Virus record (IMG/VR): IMGVR_UViG_2563366829_000009
Span: 1 to 5,018 of that record
From: a virus
Taxonomy: Duplodnaviria; Heunggongvirae; Uroviricota; Caudoviricetes
Direction: 5' to 3' (one strand)
DNA: 5,018 nt
A program made the translations under genes and the position numbers. Below are positions 1-5,018 of the stretch, piece by piece. The notes beneath the pieces are model-generated. The model was not told where the DNA came from. It did no database searches and saw only the letters and a list, made by a program, of their open reading frames with translations. Each line of letters starts with the position of its first letter. Position 1 is the first letter of the stretch.

Positions 1-202
1 CGATAAAGCGTGACTACATCAGTGTCATGCCCAAACCAGACGGGTTAACGGCAGCAAAGAACCTTGCAGAGGCGTTCGAGCATTATAACGAATGGCATCC
101 GCATAGTGCACTGGGTTATCGCTCGCCACGGGAATATCTACGGCAGCAAGCCAGTAATGGGTTAAGTGATAACAGGTGTCTGGAAATATAGGGGCAAATC
201 CA
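1..202 (+). mobile_element. IS2-like insertion sequence, right end (partial; element continues beyond window start)
   Basis: Frame-3 translation of 3-191 gives a DDE-transposase C-terminus (...[36 protein letters not shown]) that I recognise as IS2 OrfB. The sequence after the stop (GGGGCAAATCCA, ending at 202) matches my memory of the IS2 right terminus. The minus-strand reading frame of the neighbouring gene changes character exactly at 202/203. The target-site duplication cannot be checked because the left end is outside the window. Confidence 0.78.
3..191 (+). CDS. insD: IS2-family transposase OrfB (InsD-like), C-terminal 62 codons, 5'-partial
   Basis: Open frame from the window edge to TAG at 189-191. 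The translation [62 protein letters not shown] is a typical IS3-family/IS2 transposase C-terminal tail. Confidence 0.75.
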
Positions 203-433
203 GCCGATAAGAATTGATGCTGCTGGTTTGTAAAAGAGAAGGCCGCAAAGAAAGCTGAGCATCGACAGGAGCACCCGGCGACGGATGGGGTACTCTACTG
301 CAGAGGTAACAAAAATTACCACCCCAGCCAAAGCCCCTAAAGCAACCTCCGGAGGGACACCTGCAATAACTGCAGCAAGAGAACCAAAACTAAGCAACTG
401 ATTTAATTGCTCATTTGTTACTTGAGCAGACAT
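203..433 (-). pseudogene. Small hydrophobic membrane protein gene (holin-like or lysogenic-conversion-like), N-terminal 77 codons native, truncated and fused into IS2
   Basis: ATG at 433-431 is preceded by AGGAGA (rc of 438-443) at 5-nt spacing. Residues 1-77 (MSAQVTNEQLNQLLSFGSLAAVIAGVPPEVALGALAGVVIFVTSAVEYPIRRRVLLSMLSFLCGLLFYKPAASILIG) contain two or three hydrophobic helices. Codon 78 onward (WICPYISRH..., down to 116) lies inside the IS2 terminus, so the 105-aa ORF in the track is a fusion artefact. The original C-terminus is lost or displaced. Confidence 0.55.
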
Positions 434-714
434 ACTTTCTCCTGTTTACTATCTATAAGCCAGTCAATTATTGATGACTAAACCCGCATAGCAAACCATA
501 TATGAATCATTATTGTTCCATATCATATATCTCAATAAAAGTACTAATGATTTTACAGAACGAGCCAGCAGAGTGGGGGCAGTTGTACAGGAACCATAGA
601 CTTAATTTTGTATTTAATAATGCTATGGTGTAATAAACCTGAACATGTATTTAAAATACGTACTGATTCATGATAGAATTCAAAGATAACTTTTCACCAA
701 CTCCGTTTTTGATA

Positions 715-741
715 CCCGCAATATTTTGCGGGCTTTTTTTT
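715..741 (+). terminator. Intrinsic terminator-like hairpin (CCCGCAA-TATT-TTGCGGG) followed by a T8 run, oriented for plus-strand transcription; may act bidirectionally
   Basis: 7-bp GC-rich stem 715-721/726-732 with a 4-nt loop, then T734-T741. The T-run overlaps the tailspike stop codon (rc of 740-742 = TAA). On the minus strand the hairpin is followed only by UAUCAAAAAC, so termination of the tailspike transcript here would be weak. Confidence 0.55.
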
Positions 742-3700
742 AACGTTCTTCCAGAGACTGAACCCGCTCTTTTATCTTATCCATTTCTCTGCGCTGCCAT
801 GCTGCCTCGATATAGAATAAGAGATCAGGTCTGACCCCCCATCTAGATCCTGCTGGCGTTATTTCAACGCGCTCAATGATGTCTTCTATTACCATCACTG
901 GATTATCATCATCATCAACAATGATGCTCCCGTCATTATCAGTCAGCGGCATTTCCCTTTGGCCAGTAATGACGTCATCATATACTGCGGGATAATCGTC
1001 ATAGCAAAGAAAGGCATAGCGGCATGTTGTGCTTTCTTCTTCCATGAGTCCGTGAGAAATAAGAACATCACGAAGTTGCTGCGCGATTACACCATGATGT
1101 ATCCTCGCCCCTTCTTCCCCCTTTATAGCGACAGCGTTCAGCCATTTATAAGCGATATACCTGACGTCACCCCAGGCATCCAGCAATGCTTCGTCAGGAG
1201 AGACCGGCTCTGTCTTTAATGTTCCGTCACTGGTAACCACAGGATTGGAGCCAAGATAAACTGTCGAGAACCTGTTTCCCGGACCACCAAGAGCATTTAC
1301 ATTATCAAGATAAGGTTTAACATCTCCGTTCTCAAAAAGATGTTCGAGTGCGTTATATACCGCGCGACGTGGAGTACTGCTTCCGGAACCATGCAACGTT
1401 ATCATTGCACCATCTGCTGAAGACGTTGTTTCACCGCCGCTAACGATTAATCTCTGAGCGGTAACATCATCAGACGGTACTTTCTTCGCAATAATGGCGT
1501 AATTACCCTCAAGTTTGACTTCCGCGCGAACTTGTCCTGATGTACCTGCATGGACAGTCAGTGACTGGACGGCAACATCATCTGTGAAATCAACGGGTAC
1601 AGGAACCGTCCTCACGCCTGACGTCGACATAAAAGTAGGAAGCGTTCTGTTAGGAGTGGCTCCGTAGACAAAATCCCTTGAAACAAATTCTTCCTGTTTA
1701 ATTTTCACCCTGAAACAATACAAATCAGCCGGGTGACCATCGTGAACATAAGGATATTTTCTGTTGTTATCCCCTATGCTCCATGGGTTTAGAAAGTCTT
1801 CCCCACCGAAAATGTAGTACAGCCAGTTGTCTTTGATACAAACTGAACCAACACCAACCGCAGAGTTAACTATTCCGCCCTGATAAATCTGATCAGTAAC
1901 ATTAACCCACTCTACATTATCCAGACTCCACTCATTGACGTTAACTCTGGTCATAAATGTTCTTGGATAATTTCCTGCATAACGGTTATCAGGTTCTCCT
2001 CCTTCCCACTCACCAAATGCGCGCTCACTGCCAAAAATAATCAGCTCATCGCCAACTTTGGCAAAAGGAAGGTTTGAGTGATGAACATTATTTGGGAAGC
2101 GAAGAGAATTCCATGATGTACCTAAATCAGAGCTTCTGTGCAATGAACTACCGGGTTGAGTACTTAATGTCCCCCTGGTCGTCAGATACAGAATGCCATC
2201 ATAATATTTTACACATGGCTCAGATGCATTCGCCTCATATTCTACAGGTATGCGTCTGCGAACAAAGCTACCAGGAGAACCGAAAGCATCAGAGAAATAG
2301 AGTATCCCAAGCTCGCGTGGACCAATATCACCATTATGGTAGCCAACAGCAAAACTGTTATCGCTAATCGTCGCAAAACTGTGAATCTCAGTAACAGGAG
2401 TGCTTCCGTCAACAAAAGAAGGAATAGTTCCAAGACTGGTTTTTCTCCATGGTGACGAGTGAAATGATGTGCCAAAACTCCAGTATCTACCCTCGTTATT
2501 CTGATCCACATCCTGGGTATTTTGCGTCGTAACTGTAAAGGTATTTTTATCAATAACAGTAGTCACCGTCATATTCCCGGTAACACCTGTAACACCAGAG
2601 TTTGAGAAGTTGACAAAATCACCAGCAAATAATCCGTGATCAGTAATGCGAATATAAGCGACTTGCTGATTTGCTGCTTTCGTTATACCACCATAAACGC
2701 GAAGGCTGCGACTCATTGGGCGATCCCACAACTCTGCAACCTGCAGTTTATTTCCTCTCACGGTCCGCGTCTCAATTACAGCAAAAAGGCGATTTCTGAC
2801 AACCCCCATACTCATGCAGTGATAGTTAACTGTGGGATAGTTTTCATGTAAATCTGTAAGCCATTCCGGCGTTGTCCAGGTCTTCCCGTCATCTCCTGAG
2901 CGAACCCATGCAACATGGAGGTTATTTACACCATGGCGGTCTCCAGCCATAAAAGGCGCATAGATGACATTGTCATATACAAACGTTTTATCCTGCGTCC
3001 AGGCGTTGTACCACGGTGTATCTGTAATTTTAAATAACTCTCCCTGGATAAAATCTTCAGAAGCATAAAAAAGAGGCTGGCCCGGTATTCTCTCAAATAA
3101 AAAACGAGCATTTTTAAATCGACTGACATCCGGAAGAGTTGATACTTTAAAAGTAAGCCCTAATCCGTCAATTTTATAACCTGGAGATGAGGCTTCAAGG
3201 CACGCGCTTATTGCAGTGGAATCGTCATTTATACCATCACCAACAGCTCCAAAATCTTTGGGGCTAATAGCATCACGCATTTTATCCTGGAACGTTCGGT
3301 ACACAGCCCCAGAACCATACTGAATAAACCAACCAAAACCACCAACAACTCCGGCGATTGCAGCATCGACATAATTACGCATTGAGCGATTATTTACAGC
3401 GTCCTGCTCAAATGATGGATCTGCAAGGTTAGAAATTTTGTTTTGCTTTGCATCGTAATATTTTGCAAGCAAAGATGGTTTCATCAATGCACGTCTGAAC
3501 CACCCAAAACATTGCTGGATCAGCATCGTCAGGTAGTCAAAGGCATCTTCATGCACTTCGGGGAAAAATTTTCCCTGATTGCGAAGGTCTGTGTCCTGCA
3601 CTACATCAAGCACACGATCTATCGTAATTCGCCATCCAGTAGCAAGCGGAGACGGAAGAACCACAGAACCGCCACTATAAGTGCCCGCCCCAGTTACCGT

Positions 3701-3859
3701 ATAACCGGTATCCAGGACCAATTCTGTTACGTTCCCGTTCAGGTCAGACACCTGAACAACCAGGTCTGATTTTCTGAAAATTCGAAAAGTATACGGAAAC
3801 GATGTCGTAACGCCGTTACCGGTGTATTCGTTGTGGTCAACTTCGGTTGAGACCGTCAT
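740..3859 (-). CDS. Phage tailspike protein, endosialidase-like (endo-N-acetylneuraminidase family candidate) with conserved N-terminal virion-anchor domain and C-terminal intramolecular chaperone domain
   Basis: Intact 1039-codon ORF. ATG at 3859-3857 with GGAGA (rc of 3866-3870) 7 nt upstream. N-terminus MTVSTEVDHNEYTGNGVTTSFPYTFRIF is a conserved tailspike particle-binding module, recalled as epsilon15-like. Two Asp-box (S-x-D-x-G-x-T/S-W) motifs: SGDDGKTW (aa 321-328, nt 2876-2899) and SSDLGTSW (aa 576-583, nt 2111-2134). The blocks VNYHCMSMGV, ITKAANQ and KYYDGILYLTTRGT resemble endosialidases of K1 coliphages as I recall them. C-terminal 162 aa carry the Ser-Lys dyad spacing (S877...K882) and ARIHHGVIAQQ typical of self-cleaving chaperone domains. 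Confidence 0.8.
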   Translation of the reverse strand: MTVSTEVDHNEYTGNGVTTSFPYTFRIFRKSDLVVQVSDLNGNVTELVLDTGYTVTGAGTYSGGSVVLPSPLATGWRITIDRVLDVVQDTDLRNQGKFFPEVHEDAFDYLTMLIQQCFGWFRRALMKPSLLAKYYDAKQNKISNLADPSFEQDAVNNRSMRNYVDAAIAGVVGGFGWFIQYGSGAVYRTFQDKMRDAISPKDFGAVGDGINDDSTAISACLEASSPGYKIDGLGLTFKVSTLPDVSRFKNARFLFERIPGQPLFYASEDFIQGELFKITDTPWYNAWTQDKTFVYDNVIYAPFMAGDRHGVNNLHVAWVRSGDDGKTWTTPEWLTDLHENYPTVNYHCMSMGVVRNRLFAVIETRTVRGNKLQVAELWDRPMSRSLRVYGGITKAANQQVAYIRITDHGLFAGDFVNFSNSGVTGVTGNMTVTTVIDKNTFTVTTQNTQDVDQNNEGRYWSFGTSFHSSPWRKTSLGTIPSFVDGSTPVTEIHSFATISDNSFAVGYHNGDIGPRELGILYFSDAFGSPGSFVRRRIPVEYEANASEPCVKYYDGILYLTTRGTLSTQPGSSLHRSSDLGTSWNSLRFPNNVHHSNLPFAKVGDELIIFGSERAFGEWEGGEPDNRYAGNYPRTFMTRVNVNEWSLDNVEWVNVTDQIYQGGIVNSAVGVGSVCIKDNWLYYIFGGEDFLNPWSIGDNNRKYPYVHDGHPADLYCFRVKIKQEEFVSRDFVYGATPNRTLPTFMSTSGVRTVPVPVDFTDDVAVQSLTVHAGTSGQVRAEVKLEGNYAIIAKKVPSDDVTAQRLIVSGGETTSSADGAMITLHGSGSSTPRRAVYNALEHLFENGDVKPYLDNVNALGGPGNRFSTVYLGSNPVVTSDGTLKTEPVSPDEALLDAWGDVRYIAYKWLNAVAIKGEEGARIHHGVIAQQLRDVLISHGLMEEESTTCRYAFLCYDDYPAVYDDVITGQREMPLTDNDGSIIVDDDDNPVMVIEDIIERVEITPAGSRWGVRPDLLFYIEAAWQRREMDKIKERVQSLEER
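743..1231 (-). other. C-terminal intramolecular chaperone / autoproteolytic domain (peptidase S74-like) of the tailspike; predicted self-cleavage between Ser877 and Asp878
   Basis: Sequence ...GSNPVVTS|DGTLKTEP... with Ser877 (codon 1229-1231) and Lys882 (codon 1214-1216) five residues apart, followed by DAWGDVRYIAYKWLNAVAIKGEEGARIHHGVIAQQLRDV. This matches the established Ser/Lys dyad architecture of the C-terminal chaperone domains of endosialidases and related tail fibres. Confidence 0.65.
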
Positions 3860-4054
3860 GTTAAATCTCCAGATAGTCGCAGCACCCGTTGCGCCGCATA
3901 TCTGGTTATTCTATTACCTGAAAAACCATATATGGATAAAAAGACTATAAATACCAATAGATATTACCTTTCGGGTAATTTGCAAAACGTGCTGGATAGC
4001 AAACAAATTATTTGTTACTGTATAAACATACAGTTATTGCATGGAGAAGATAAG
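3860..4054. promoter_or_regulatory. AT-rich divergent intergenic region between the tailspike gene (minus) and the small ORF (plus); contains a palindrome and candidate promoter elements
   Basis: 195 bp between two divergent start codons, each with a good RBS. Contains palindrome ATTACC-TTTCG-GGTAAT (3963-3979) immediately followed by the self-complementary hexamer TTGCAA (3980-3985), and TATAAA at 4021-4026 preceded by TG at 4019-4020. No hexamer pair with canonical 17-bp spacing was found, so the promoter assignment is tentative. Confidence 0.4.
3963..3979. repeat. Palindrome ATTACC-N5-GGTAAT (candidate operator or small hairpin), copy A
   Basis: Perfect 6-bp arms with a 5-nt spacer. The same half-site recurs at 3914-3919, 4321-4326 (within an inverted GGTAATTGCAAA motif) and as TTTACC-N5-GGTAAA at 4343-4359. 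Confidence 0.45.
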
Positions 4055-4312
4055 ATGCAGCAGTATCACTATCCACTGGAAGACGGATTTACCGAAAGGA
4101 TTCACACGCCGGGAGGCGTCAGGTCACTGGTGGAGGGATCGCACTTGATGAAATTACTCCGGGATCTCGATAAGGATGGATTTAATGTCGATGGCCCACT
4201 TGCCGAACTGACTGCACTGATTAACTACGTCACCAGCTCACAGATGTCTATGCAGGATCTGCAAACACATCTCGACTATTGTGCCGAACAATTACGAAAA
4301 CAAACCAGATAA
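4055..4312 (+). CDS. Hypothetical small acidic protein (85 aa), function unknown
   Basis: ATG at 4055 preceded by GGAG (4043-4046) at 8-nt spacing; stop TAA at 4310-4312. The ORF track start at 3932 adds 41 low-complexity codons from the AT-rich promoter region with no RBS, so the shorter start is preferred. Product MQQYHYPLEDGFTERIHTPGGVRSLVEGSHLMKLLRDLDKDGFNVDGPLAELTALINYVTSSQMSMQDLQTHLDYCAEQLRKQTR has about 14 D/E against 8 K/R and no hydrophobic segment; I do not recognise a family. Confidence 0.5.
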   Translation: MQQYHYPLEDGFTERIHTPGGVRSLVEGSHLMKLLRDLDKDGFNVDGPLAELTALINYVTSSQMSMQDLQTHLDYCAEQLRKQTR

Positions 4313-4330
4313 GGTTTGCAATTACCAAAT

Positions 4331-4374
4331 GGAGTGCTTATATTTACCTTTGCGGTAAATTTACATCGCACTCC
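4331..4374. repeat. Nested inverted repeat: GGAGTGC (4331-4337) / GCACTCC (4368-4374) enclosing palindrome TTTACC-TTTGC-GGTAAA (4343-4359), copy C of the ATTACC/GGTAAT-type motif
   Basis: Read directly from the sequence; lies 19-60 nt downstream of the small-ORF stop codon. Confidence 0.45.
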
Positions 4375-4385
4375 TCTTGTGCCAT

Positions 4386-4437
4386 AGTAATCGGGCACTG
4401 GCAAAATCCAGTGCCGGGATTGGTCTCCCGGATTACT
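4386..4437 (+). other. Compound stem-loop / imperfect long palindrome (candidate structured RNA element or protein-binding site)
   Basis: AGTAATC (4386-4392) pairs with GATTACT (4431-4437). Inside it is a perfect 8-bp hairpin GGCACTGG-CAAAAT-CCAGTGCC (4394-4415) and a second short hairpin GGGA-TTGGTC-TCCC (4416-4429). Confidence 0.35.
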
Positions 4438-4452
4438 ACAGAGGCACATATG

Positions 4453-4471
4453 CCGCATAAGCGGTTTTTTT
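4453..4471 (+). terminator. Weak intrinsic-terminator candidate (CCGC-ATAA-GCGG followed by T7) downstream of the small ORF
   Basis: 4-bp GC stem 4453-4456/4461-4464 followed by T4465-T4471. The stem is short, so confidence is low; it may act together with the upstream compound hairpin. Confidence 0.3.
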
Positions 4472-4566
4472 ATGTGTAAAGCGCACCTATTCTATGGTGG
4501 GCTGTGTGGGGGCACCGAAAGGTGCGCCGGGTTCCTTTGTAGCCGGTAAGACCAACTCTGCACAGT

Positions 4567-4599
4567 TCACCACCATCTGATTGGTCTCAGCGGTGGTGA
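4567..4599. repeat. Inverted repeat TCACCACC-N17-GGTGGTGA upstream of the antirepressor start (candidate operator)
   Basis: 8-bp perfect arms at 4567-4574 and 4592-4599. A second overlapping inverted repeat AGACCAA (4549-4555) / TTGGTCT (4581-4587) is also present. Located 27-60 nt upstream of ATG 4626. Confidence 0.4.
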
Positions 4600-4625
4600 T
4601 TAACCTAACTACAAAGGTGATCGCT

Positions 4626-4793
4626 ATGAATACCAAACCTTCCATCTTTTCCTTTGAGTCATCCTGCCAGATCCGTATGTTCATGATTGACGGAGAACCT
4701 TGGTTTGTCACCAAAGATGTGTGCAATGCTTTGAATATTGATGTTACACAAGCGAGAAAACTTGATAAAAAAGGCTGGAACAAAAAGGGGCTG
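4626..4793 (+). pseudogene. Bro-N-domain phage antirepressor-like gene, N-terminal 56 codons only; truncated by IS3-family insertion
   Basis: ATG 4626 preceded by AAGGTG (4614-4619) at 6-nt spacing. Translation MNTKPSIFSFESSCQIRMFMIDGEPWFVTKDVCNALNIDVTQARKLDKK... fits the Bro-N / antirepressor N-terminal pattern (F-x-F...IR...DGEPWF-x-x-KDV...L). The frame runs straight into the IS terminus TGAACCGCCCC at 4794, whose first three bases supply the stop codon. Confidence 0.6.
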
Positions 4794-5018
4794 TGAACCG
4801 CCCCGGGTTTCCTGGAGAGTGTTTTATCTGTGAACTCAGGCTGCCAGATCATCGTTTCCGATGGAAGCATAATAAGCTTTTTCTGCTTCTGCCGGAGGAG
4901 TATGGCCCAGCCTTTCCAGCAATCGTCGATTGTTATACCAGTCCACCCACGTGAGTGTGGCCAGTTCCACTTCTGCACGGTTTTTCCAGCTCTTACGGTG
5001 TATTACCTCCGCTTTGTA
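4794..5018 (-). mobile_element. IS3-family insertion sequence (IS629/IS3411-like), terminal inverted repeat and 3' end of transposase; element continues beyond window end
   Basis: Terminus TGAACCGCCCCGGGTTTCCTGGAGAG at 4794 is a characteristic IS3-family end (TG...CA). The minus-strand frame 5018-4836 encodes a DDE-transposase C-terminus. The target-site duplication cannot be checked within the window. Confidence 0.75.
4836..5018 (-). CDS. IS3-family transposase OrfB, C-terminal 60 codons, 5'-partial
   Basis: Reverse-complement translation YKAEVIHRKSWKNRAEVELATLTWVDWYNNRRLLERLGHTPPAEAEKAYYASIGNDDLAA* is in frame with the window edge; stop TGA is rc of 4836-4838. It is absent from the ORF track only because it has no in-window start codon. 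Confidence 0.8.
   Translation of the reverse strand, partial: YKAEVIHRKSWKNRAEVELATLTWVDWYNNRRLLERLGHTPPAEAEKAYYASIGNDDLAA

Follow-up and report, generated by a model that had tools for sequence, protein, structure and literature searches.

An inverted-repeat-rich leader ahead of an IS629-interrupted antirepressor gene is a probable P1/P7 immI-type control region in an E. coli prophage

What is the function of the dense inverted repeats that precede a broken antirepressor gene? This question is raised by a stretch of 5,018 nucleotides (positions 1 to 5,018 of the IMG/VR virus record IMGVR_UViG_2563366829_000009; hereafter the window), in which the antirepressor gene ant is cut short by an insertion sequence and follows a 145-nt leader (4481–4625). 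The original prediction compared this layout with the immI regions of P22-like phages, in which operators and an antisense RNA control the antirepressor. We put the probability at about 0.85 that positions 4342 to 4625 make up a P1/P7 immI-type region controlling an antirepressor operon, residing in an E. coli prophage of the Uetakevirus group and acting by the RNA-based mechanism described below. The features on which this reading is based are collected in Table 1.

Table 1. Features of the ant locus and its surroundings (positions in the window)
Feature	Positions	Strand	Basis or remark
Operator copy, LexA box and 85-aa ORF	3964–4312	+	operator copy 3964–3978; LexA box TACTGTATAAACATACAGTT 4016–4035; ORF 4055–4312
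Candidate repressor operator ATTTACC-N5-GGTAAAT	4342–4360	.	core TTACC-N5-GGTAA 4344–4358; adjoins the promoter −35
σ70-like promoter TTTACA-17-CATAGT, TG upstream	4360–4388	+	consensus scan; putative activity
IsrK-like leader RNA	4395–4471	+	Rfam RF01394 isrK and terminator
C4 antisense RNA	4490–4577	+	Rfam RF01695, fold, covariation, P1 annotation
Alternative hairpin TCACCACC/GGTGGTGA	4567–4599	+	repeat I14; in competition with the C4 closing stem for its 3' arm
Target b2 CTACAAAGG (4609–4617) and ant Shine-Dalgarno sequence	4609–4620	+	overlaps Shine-Dalgarno AAGGTGA 4614–4620
Truncated antirepressor gene ant	4626–4796	+	Bro-N type; 56 of 230 native codons retained
IS629 right end (IS3 family), inverted relative to ant	4794–5018	−	225 nt, 100% identity to IS629 ORF2 regions

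The start codon of ant is the ATG at 4626, whereas its stop codon, TGA (4794–4796), comes from the insertion sequence. The fragment matched the Pfam Bro-N profile (PF02498) with 25.6 bits, a score equal to the gathering score, over profile positions 1–39 of 96, and matched the anti-repressor families of PHROG with a best E value of 2.7e-13. An intact allele in E. coli MS 196-1 encodes a protein of 230 aa, which matched Bro-N with 51.4 bits over profile positions 2–96; alongside these scores, the Bro-N Ant gave a PHROG 130 match with E = 3.5e-51. The intact allele is 81% identical overall to ORF4 of phage ZX5, residues 105–230 being identical, and overexpression of ORF4 shifted the phage to the lytic cycle and lowered lysogeny (PMC9782041). 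Both the domain match and a relative with demonstrated antirepressor activity thus place ant among the Bro-N antirepressors, and the original assignment, with 56 codons left, is upheld. Because half of the Bro-N domain and the entire C-terminal domain have been lost to IS629, Ant is almost certainly inactive here, in agreement with the earlier view.

The insertion, correctly predicted to be of the IS3 family, was identified as IS629. It gave Pfam rve_2 and rve_3 matches and carries the terminal inverted repeat TGAACCGCCCCGGG... and the 3' end of the transposase gene orfB, and a 3-bp target duplication, CTG, is present at 4791–4793. In the source scaffold KE137271.1, the far end of the element is followed by CTG and then by the remainder of ant, so that both ends and both copies of CTG are visible. 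Therefore, the break in ant is a simple insertion of IS629 after codon 56 with a 3-bp duplication. An exact 34-mer across the ant::IS629 junction found no match among the GTDB species representatives, and the junction was covered by none of the complete E. coli genomes; two Logan contigs stop exactly at it. In addition, the holin gene is split by an IS2-type element of the IS3 family, and a sister prophage has an additional insertion sequence inside a structural gene. The host element is a decaying E. coli prophage similar to epsilon15 and phiV10 (Uetakevirus).

The three inverted repeats that had been reported in the ant leader were all located. They consist of GCGCACCT (4481–4488) and AGGTGCGC (4520–4527), flanking a GCACC-GAAA-GGTGC hairpin at 4512–4525 (I13); AGACCAA (4549–4555) and TTGGTCT (4581–4587; I5/I16); and the arms of I14 at 4567–4574 and 4592–4599. 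Inverted repeats are far more abundant in this leader than expected by chance: it contains 9 perfect 7-mer inverted-repeat seeds compared with 0.54 ± 0.91 in shuffled sequences, and none of 1000 dinucleotide shuffles reached 9. The nested pair GCGCACC/GGTGCGC is present, but its outer 5' arm (4481–4487) was kept in no homologue in the alignment. It was accordingly rejected as a true helix, and the arm probably reflects chance or an alternative pairing. Three elements had been overlooked in the first reading, namely a 17-bp closing stem (4495–4511/4556–4572), a pairing between a loop, b', and a downstream site, b2, and an IsrK-like element upstream. The repeats are RNA stems and complementarities between an antisense RNA and its targets, rather than operators. 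In homologous loci they covary as RNA pairs, including G-U intermediates, which is unlike DNA operators; the helices and the loop/target pairs are conserved in this manner, and the proposed role of the repeats as operators was not borne out. Neither a tRNA nor a tmRNA was found.

The stretch containing these stems matched the C4 antisense RNA family (RF01695) over the whole model (positions 1–87 of 87) with 78.6 bits (gathering score, 45) and E = 8e-15. From homology to the annotated C4 of P1, the mature RNA is predicted to span 4496–4574. The 17-bp closing stem encloses the hairpin at 4512–4525 and a further hairpin at 4526–4547, which bears the loop b' (CCTTTGTAG, 4534–4542), and is joined to the latter by the single-stranded segment a' (AGACCAA, 4549–4555). 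The 88-nt core folds with −43.6 kcal/mol (z = −4.5). Across 15 sequences, 99.3% of the cells in the C4 helices were paired, and 11 of the 27 pairs had changed on both sides; this level of pairing was reached in 0 of 500 shuffles, and slid controls gave only 35–50% paired cells. A long closing stem and two hairpins with compensatory changes among relatives, as in C4, are therefore present. The stem ends in ...CACCACC followed by A, as in P1, a likeness of sequence only. The alternative hairpin would expose a2 (TTGGTCT, 4581–4587) in its loop; in 15 sequences, 97.5% of its cells were paired, with three double-changed pairs (in P1 and Stx1_14040), and at most 3 of 500 shuffles scored as high.

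Both a' and b' are complementary to sites downstream on the same strand, as is characteristic of C4. The b'/b2 pairing comprises 9 contiguous Watson-Crick pairs over the Shine-Dalgarno sequence of ant, with a predicted duplex energy of −12.6 kcal/mol, and a'/a2 comprises 7 pairs with a predicted −9.2 kcal/mol. Second copies of the targets, a1 and b1, lie upstream of C4. Among 17 loci including P1, 12 different b' loops (11 distinct pairing cores) were found, and in most of these loci the b2 of the same locus holds a perfect complement of 8–10 nt to b'. The mean length of the b'/b2 complement was 8.47 nt for cognate and 4.57 nt for non-cognate combinations; the corresponding values were 7.35 and 4.31 nt for b'/b1, and 6.9 and 4.2 nt for a'. 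A short match for one of the four loop/target pairs was seen in 2 of the 17 loci (b'/b2 in Kp_ST11 and a'/a2 in SfV). This covariation of loops and targets points to differing immunity specificities among the loci. Tyrion and Klebsiella phi13.3 have the same a/b sequences as the present locus, and the regulatory region shows 100% identity with its counterpart in EC.W1-9, a sequenced phage. All 15 homologous loci other than P1 have the order isrK, C4, ant with the same spacing, and 42% of the complete E. coli genomes have a detectable copy of the module.

The upstream copies of the targets are contained in a leader that matched the isrK family (RF01394) with 74.7 bits (gathering score, 50) over positions 1–77 of 77, including the terminator; ant starts 155 nt downstream. 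The leader consists of hairpin 1 (4395–4414), hairpin 2 (4415–4430), whose loop contains the decoy a1 (TTGGTCT, 4420–4426), the decoy b1 (CTACAGAGG, 4436–4444), and a Rho-independent terminator (4452–4471) at its end. The a1 sequence is identical to a2, and b1 differs from b2 in one base, which gives a G-U pair. The predicted energies of pairing with C4 are −9.2 kcal/mol for a'/a1 and −12.5 kcal/mol for b'/b1. A match to the c4-a1b1 family (RF03163) scored 39.9 bits, under its gathering score of 46.7. The transcript predicted from the σ70-like promoter starts at approximately 4395, which corresponds to position 1 of the IsrK model, and the −10 region of the promoter is conserved among the aligned homologues.

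Adjoining this promoter, and further upstream than the repeats originally reported, the palindrome at 4344–4358 is a candidate operator on the grounds of its distribution. TTACC-N5-GGTAA occurs twice in the window compared with 0.13 expected. The ZX5 genome has 10 perfect copies (0.02 expected), all of which are intergenic and three of which surround the repressor gene, and the rest of the sister prophage has 11 copies with at most one mismatch, 9 of them perfect (0.34 expected). The palindrome is found at the same position in phiV10, ZX5, Tyrion, and two Klebsiella phages. The N6 spacing of the same half-sites gave nothing; N5 is the correct spacing.

Taken together with the mode of action of C4, which we carry over from the annotation of P1/P7 and from a review, these features suggest the following mechanism. 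The promoter next to the candidate operator would transcribe the IsrK-like leader, and most transcripts are expected to end at the leader terminator. Transcripts that read through would include C4 and then ant. C4 forms a stable RNA of three helices, which RNase P probably cuts out of the transcript, as it does in P1. The loop b' of C4 would pair with b2 over the ant Shine-Dalgarno sequence and the segment a' with a2, which precedes b2 by 28 nt; such pairing would block ribosome binding and, by analogy with P1, allow an early stop of ant transcription. Because a1 and b1 in the leader are near-identical copies of the targets, the free leader RNA could titrate C4 and thereby relieve repression; what has been reported of IsrK and AnrP in the Salmonella prophage Gifsy-1 would be this effect. 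A point change in b', for example from CCTTTGTAG to CCTTAGTAG, would be expected to derepress ant. The insertion of IS629 after codon 56 leaves both regulatory RNAs untouched.

The immI region of P1/P7 has the order Op51-P51, a1, b1, c4 RNA, a2, b2, icd, and ant1/ant2. The present locus resembles it in the order of the parts, their location on the same strand, their near-equal spacings, the three-helix fold of C4, and the structural positions of a' and b'. In both, the first ORF downstream has its ribosome-binding site covered by b2, and a repressor operator, a candidate one here, lies at the promoter. The a2 site starts 4 nt past the end of c4 in P1 and 7 nt past the predicted end of C4 here; in P1, b2 follows a2 by 29 nt and its end lies 10 nt ahead of the start codon, the values here being 28 nt and, to the ATG, 8 nt. 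On the other hand, a' and b' are AGACCAA and CCTTTGTAG here but CTGTCAA and TCACTAAC in P1, and therefore the specificity differs. No icd-like ORF is present in the 51 nt between the predicted end of C4 (4574) and the ATG of ant, and the translational coupling through icd in P1 is therefore inapplicable; icd is likewise lacking, and b2 lies on the Shine-Dalgarno sequence of ant itself, in phiV10, ZX5, Tyrion, and APSE-1. The locus also differs from P1 in that Ant is a 230-aa Bro-N protein instead of Ant1/Ant2, that the leader ends with a strong intrinsic terminator and hence gives an IsrK-type small RNA, and that it is carried by an integrated podovirus-type prophage instead of a plasmid prophage. 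The order tailspike, 85-aa ORF, isrK, C4, ant is shared with the genomes of ZX5 (ant being ORF4) and phiV10 (gp23), in which ant is intact and C4 has another specificity (a' ACGCCAA, b' CCTTTTAG). The CI RNA of P4 (seqA/seqC), likened here by description, is also a small RNA processed from the leader of the operon that it controls and pairs with repeated sites upstream and downstream, but its reported effect is the premature termination of transcription of replication genes, as opposed to the covering of an antirepressor ribosome-binding site. In the Gifsy-1 study, seqA is cited as structurally homologous to IsrK (PMC4825925).

[quoted passage not shown] Transferred to the present locus, their model would have the a1/b1 region pair with the C4 region in cis in an inactive fold of the read-through transcript, which the free IsrK-like RNA opens so that a small ORF is coupled into ant, with a secondary role for C4 in trans. 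Genetic and structural data were obtained for Gifsy-1 (PMC4825925), and the loci are alike in the full-length IsrK match with its terminator, the C4-sized element at the same distance, and the antirepressor gene that follows; in both, the antirepressor gene is probably reached by transcripts that read through from the leader promoter. Furthermore, the minimum-energy fold of 4389–4640 pairs 4416–4450 with 4531–4557 in cis, and the duplex of the C4 loops with the a1/b1 region is predicted to be more stable than that with a2/b2 (−29.4 versus −24.4 kcal/mol). However, the 28-codon ORF that begins within C4 at ATG 4494 ends at 4580, 45 nt before the ATG of ant, and its length and frame are unconserved; coupling of the orf45 type is therefore unlikely here. 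In addition, the overlap of b2 with the Shine-Dalgarno sequence and the covariation of a' and b' with the downstream sites fit a C4 acting in trans and are left unexplained by a purely cis model. No antQ gene was present in the sequence examined. We regard the Gifsy-1-type control as unlikely to be the principal mode here, though it is compatible with C4 acting in trans.

The remaining readings take the repeats as something other than parts of C4. In favour of a region like P22 immI (ant, arc, mnt, and sar RNA) are the downstream antirepressor gene and the density of the inverted repeats; as in P22, the antirepressor appears to be under tight extra control including an antisense RNA. In P22, however, the RNA that crosses the ant leader is made from the other strand and two ribbon-helix-helix repressors act on operators, and neither was found here. 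There was no Rfam sar match at E ≤ 1, and no ORF of the Arc/Mnt ribbon-helix-helix kind; the 85-aa ORF and its neighbours lack such a Pfam match. A minus-strand promoter and terminator pair, sought because it would indicate an antisense RNA over 4480–4625, was absent across the leader in a scan of 3800–5018, and the minus-strand RNA was rejected. One weak promoter-like site was seen on that strand at 4711–4683, but no minus-strand terminator exists in 4288–4787, and promoter-like sites are not enriched over shuffles (4 versus 2.1 ± 1.6). Since the repeats also covary as RNA pairs with G-U intermediates, which would be unexpected of protein operators, a P22-type region is very improbable; the immI-like control by an antisense RNA that was originally envisaged holds, with C4 as that RNA, but not its P22 form. 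Still less probable is a small protein, with the repeats incidental. Related records carry an 'ash family protein' or 'hypothetical protein', GenBank/PGAP called ORFs in ZX5, VT2-Sakai, and some E. coli genomes, and the ATG at 4494 does open a frame. A protein-coding reading of the C4 stretch was rejected because the ORF ranges among homologues from 8 aa to over 100 aa, with loss of the frame after about 13 residues; moreover, the nucleotide changes are compensatory for the helices. The P1/P7 immI-type reading is thus preferred.

It may further be asked, tentatively, whether IsrK itself belongs to the C4 system. The IsrK RNA might be the a1/b1 decoy of that system; the terminated leader would then act as an anti-antisense RNA by titrating C4, and the stable STnc1160/'orf45' RNA of Gifsy-1 would be a homologue of C4. 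We consider this somewhat less probable than its opposite. The Gifsy-1 paper makes no mention of phage P1, Citron, or RNase P, and its model is without C4 (PMC4825925). Constitutive STnc1160 strengthened the toxicity of IsrK (PMC4825925), a result that does not fit a simple decoy model. Rfam places isrK outside the C4 clan.

It had also been suggested that loss of the antirepressor could lock the prophage in the repressed state. Upstream of the leader, the intact 85-aa ORF is a paralogue of Ant residues 149–222, that is, of the C-terminal domain, and has a strong LexA box in front of it. Because this LexA-boxed paralogue is intact, and because of the split holin gene and the further insertion in the sister prophage, the lock is doubtful. 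In this strain, IS629 has cost the prophage its Ant; the regulatory RNAs and the LexA-boxed small paralogue are retained.

The element is of a known and already described kind, an ordinary instance of its family, and holds no surprise for a specialist in phage RNA. The main value of the finding lies in annotation, since apparent operators or an 'ash family' or hypothetical ORF are replaced by two curated RNA families and a switch of the P1 antirepressor type. The locus places this switch in epsilon15/phiV10-like prophages with several loop/target specificities, and suggests that the accounts of Salmonella IsrK and P1 C4 concern one module. If the tentative view of IsrK is true, more than 40% of complete E. 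coli genomes would carry a three-part RNA switch, composed of the C4 repressor, the IsrK sponge, and the ant mRNA, in many private specificities. In the present prophage the switch would then be intact without its protein output, and it could persist as an RNA-only means of immunity or cross-talk towards phages that share its a/b sequences, such as Tyrion and Klebsiella phi13.3.

The inverted repeats upstream of the antirepressor gene ant belong for the most part to a C4 RNA, a same-strand antisense RNA of the P1/P7 immI type. An Rfam scan of the whole window returned full-length matches to C4 and isrK that exceed the curated gathering thresholds (GA), and a sub-threshold match to c4-a1b1 (Table). 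The predicted fold of the 88-nt C4 stretch (−43.6 kcal/mol, z = −4.5) is that of the family: a closing stem of 17 bp and two hairpins, the first of GNRA type and the second with a loop of 12 nt. Positions 4481 to 4625 hold 9 perfect 7-mer inverted-repeat seeds, compared with 0.54 expected from dinucleotide shuffles, and the three inverted repeats of the original prediction were all present where it had placed them. The hairpin GCACC-GAAA-GGTGC is helix 2 of C4, AGACCAA is its single-stranded segment a' with TTGGTCT as the downstream target a2, and TCACCACC is the 3' arm of its closing stem with GGTGGTGA as a conserved complement downstream. The last two are predicted to be able to form an alternative hairpin with a2 in the loop. 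The outer arm GCGCACC (4481-4487) of the first repeat is conserved in no relative and is best taken as chance. The C4 closing stem, the b'/b2 pair, the a1 and b1 copies and the intrinsic terminator had been overlooked.

Features of the window and of the ant control region
Feature	Position	Strand	Remarks
IS2-type IS3-family end	1-203		splits holin gene
Holin gene	116-433	minus	interrupted by IS2-type IS3-family end
K1 endosialidase tailspike	740-3859	minus	1039 aa, Peptidase_S74 chaperone domain
LexA box TACTGTATAAACATACAGTT	4016-4035		17/20 to consensus, none expected by chance; 20 nt before ATG of 85-aa ORF
85-aa ORF	4055-4312
Palindrome ATTTACC-N5-GGTAAAT	4342-4360		abuts promoter −35; candidate operator
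Promoter TTTACA-17-CATAGT	4360-4388		predicted start ~4395, position 1 of IsrK model
c4-a1b1	4382-4434		Rfam, sub-threshold, 39.9 bits (GA 46.7)
isrK	4395-4471		Rfam, full-length, 74.7 bits (GA 50)
a1	4420-4426		in hairpin loop
b1	4436-4444		upstream copy of b target
Intrinsic terminator	4452-4471		closes leader
C4 antisense RNA	4490-4577		Rfam, full-length, 78.6 bits (GA 45)
b' CCTTTGTAG	4534-4542		pairs with b2
b2 CTACAAAGG	4609-4617		overlaps Shine-Dalgarno AAGGTGA, eight bases before ATG

For comparison, 16 loci were fetched from phiV10, ZX5, Tyrion, two Klebsiella phages, APSE-1, a Yersinia phage, several Stx phages, SfV, a Salmonella phage and P1. Both isrK and C4 scored above threshold in all 15 non-P1 loci, identically ordered and spaced and with an antirepressor gene downstream. 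Annotation in the P1 record, based on experiment, covers Oc4, the promoters, a1, b1, c4, a2, b2, icd and ant, and the parts lie at almost equal relative distances in the window. In a 15-sequence alignment, 99.3% of the cells in the three C4 helices were paired, and 11 of 27 pairs were changed on both sides, a count matched in none of 500 shuffles; only 35-50% of cells paired when partners were shifted by 1-3 columns. For the alternative hairpin, 97.5% of cells were paired and three pairs were altered on both sides. The loops were the most informative: among 17 loci, the b' loops had 12 different sequences with 11 distinct pairing cores, most of them perfectly complementary over 8-10 nt to the b2 and b1 of their own locus, and the a' segment behaved likewise. 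The mean cognate complement was 8.47, 7.35 and 6.9 nt, compared with 4.2-4.6 nt for non-cognate combinations. Such covariation of loop and target is expected when the specificity of an antisense RNA co-evolves with its targets, and P1/P7 heteroimmunity is a case in point (review, PMC12197685). The a/b sequences of the window are common to Tyrion and Klebsiella phage ST512-KPC3phi13.3 and not to phiV10 or ZX5.

Judged from sequence comparison, conservation over the C4 stretch is that of an RNA, not of a protein. An ORF from ATG 4494 within C4 was rejected as a gene, having no conserved length or frame; some records label it 'ash family protein' or 'hypothetical'. Public gene calls over C4 ('ash family protein', 'hypothetical protein', 'immunity region') were seen in three fetched sequences (L011 930-1043, L008 863-1036 and L009 425-1261) and in E. 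coli records, and are probably spurious, caused by the conserved ATGGTGGG with which C4 begins at its 5' end.

Transcription from the predicted promoter would start at about 4395, with most transcripts ending at the leader terminator as an IsrK-like RNA, and read-through would yield C4 and ant. C4 would then, by analogy with P1, be excised from the transcript and base-pair via a' with a2 and via b' with b2 (predicted duplexes, −9.2 and −12.6 kcal/mol), which would hide the ant ribosome-binding site. The leader copies a1 and b1 are predicted to bind C4 with nearly equal energies (−9.2 and −12.5 kcal/mol); therefore, the leader can compete for C4, and we put the possibility that it acts as such a decoy at somewhat under even odds. 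The Gifsy-1 experiments fit this mechanism, since anrP is driven by the isrK promoter, an ~80-nt RNA is processed out of the read-through transcript, and anrP translation rises >100-fold with IsrK in trans (PMC4825925). To account for the results, their authors invoked a structural switch together with an upstream ORF and made no mention of C4 (PMC4825925). In the window, the upstream ORF stops 45 nt before ant, and coupling is therefore unlikely there. The decoy and structural-switch views are not mutually exclusive.

The core of the palindrome at the promoter, TTACC-N5-GGTAA, occurs twice in the window (3964-3978 and 4344-4358; 0.13 expected), at the equivalent position in five related phages, and ten times in the 39.6-kb ZX5 genome (0.02 expected). 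When checked against the annotation, 10 of 10 ZX5 copies were intergenic, three of them around the repressor gene; another fetched sequence, L018, had 11 sites. Copies are scattered through epsilon15/phiV10-like genomes; in ZX5, several flank repressor/cro-like genes or precede early and late operons. This dispersal looks like the P1-style scattered operators of one repressor, and we take the palindrome as a candidate operator for the main repressor of the prophage, corresponding to Op51 in P1.

As predicted, the ORF from ATG 4626 has exactly 56 codons before the IS; all are native, because the intact 230-aa allele of the E. coli MS 196-1 prophage reads ...KKGLYSIQ.... The fragment is of Bro-N type, reaching the Pfam gathering score (25.6 bits) over profile positions 1-39 of 96, and also matches PHROG anti-repressor families; the intact allele recovered by this comparison matches the whole profile (51.4 bits). 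The inferred IS3-family insertion was borne out, the 225 nt from 4794 being 100% identical to IS629. Past the assembly gap, the source scaffold continues with the IS629 left end, CTG and the other 524 nt of ant (one mismatch to MS 196-1), indicating simple transposition with a 3-bp CTG duplication (4791-4793). The IS629 terminus supplies the TGA stop codon. Residues 57-230 are lost, so that the Bro-N domain (Pfam envelope 16-106) is halved and the C-terminal part is missing altogether. The intact product is 81% identical to ZX5 ORF4 (residues 105-230 identical), overexpression of which cut ZX5 lysogeny a thousand-fold (PMC9782041). The truncated Ant is therefore almost certainly inactive, as had been proposed. 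Upstream, the control RNAs are intact and match those of EC.W1-9, a sequenced phage, at 100% identity; the insertion is a strain-level mutation. Two contigs from unrelated runs (SRR19487670 and SRR31216198) stop exactly at ...GGGGCTGT (L020 6169 and L021 2081), the last base common to the intact and IS629-bearing alleles, which points to this insertion, or to a branch point there, in other strains.

The window has the gene content of an epsilon15/phiV10-like (Uetakevirus) prophage, and the order tailspike, 85-aa ORF, leader, ant is common to phiV10, ZX5, Tyrion and others. Positions 1-4794 differ from the MS 196-1 chromosomal prophage at two bases only. The window corresponds exactly to a contig of scaffold KE137271.1 (GCA_000408745.1), with N runs on both sides beginning within IS elements; as a draft-assembly contig, it ends in the IS2-type element inside the holin gene and in IS629 inside ant. 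In the MS 196-1 prophage, the holin gene is interrupted by the same IS, and a further IS3-family element lies in a structural gene (L019 816-1375, 6394-10178). The prophage is already damaged and decaying. The tailspike gene codes for a complete endosialidase of the K1 type, with End_N_terminal, beta-propeller, beta-barrel, tail-spike and S74 chaperone domains, on an epsilon15-like N-terminal adaptor; relatives carry other depolymerases in place of this module, namely phiV10 (875 aa) and one of the contigs ending at the ant/IS629 junction (L020; 709 aa, pectate-lyase type). The interval from the 85-aa ORF to the isrK promoter is only 68 nt in the window, whereas EC.W1-9 (PP445227.1, 27869-29006) has ~1.1 kb and TL-2011b roughly 0.8 kb of extra DNA there, which may be an inserted cargo gene.

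The 85-aa ORF is intact in the window and resembles Ant residues 149-222 (42% identity, E = 6e-16), and phiV10, ZX5 and Tyrion have conserved the LexA box ahead of it. Its protein family is PHROG 450 ('unknown function'); relatives bear the name 'Anti-repressor protein' in a few UniRef entries. The ORF is a reasonable candidate for a small antirepressor under SOS/LexA control. The main repressor of the MS 196-1 prophage has an HTH domain, and a LexA-like peptidase domain (Peptidase_S24) was not found in it. A microcin that damages DNA acts as an inducer of Uetakevirus prophages (bioRxiv 10.64898/2026.05.26.727859). On account of this Ant-like ORF, its conserved LexA box, the repressor and the microcin induction, we doubt that loss of Ant locks the prophage in the repressed state, as had been suggested; the prophage is in any case already IS-damaged.

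The window locus is an ordinary instance of known RNA families, both curated in Rfam. These families were reportedly described in P1/P7 work in 1990. Descriptions also appeared in 2010 (PMC2864571) and 2016 (PMC4825925). C4-like sequences similar to that of the window occur in 2267 of 5426 complete E. coli genomes, in up to five copies per genome. The dispersed candidate operator palindromes and the LexA-boxed 85-aa ORF paralogous to the Ant C-terminus are mildly new, and may already be in print. A link between IsrK and C4 was not found in the accessible literature, and the reading that IsrK may be the a1/b1 element of the C4 system is likewise mildly new.
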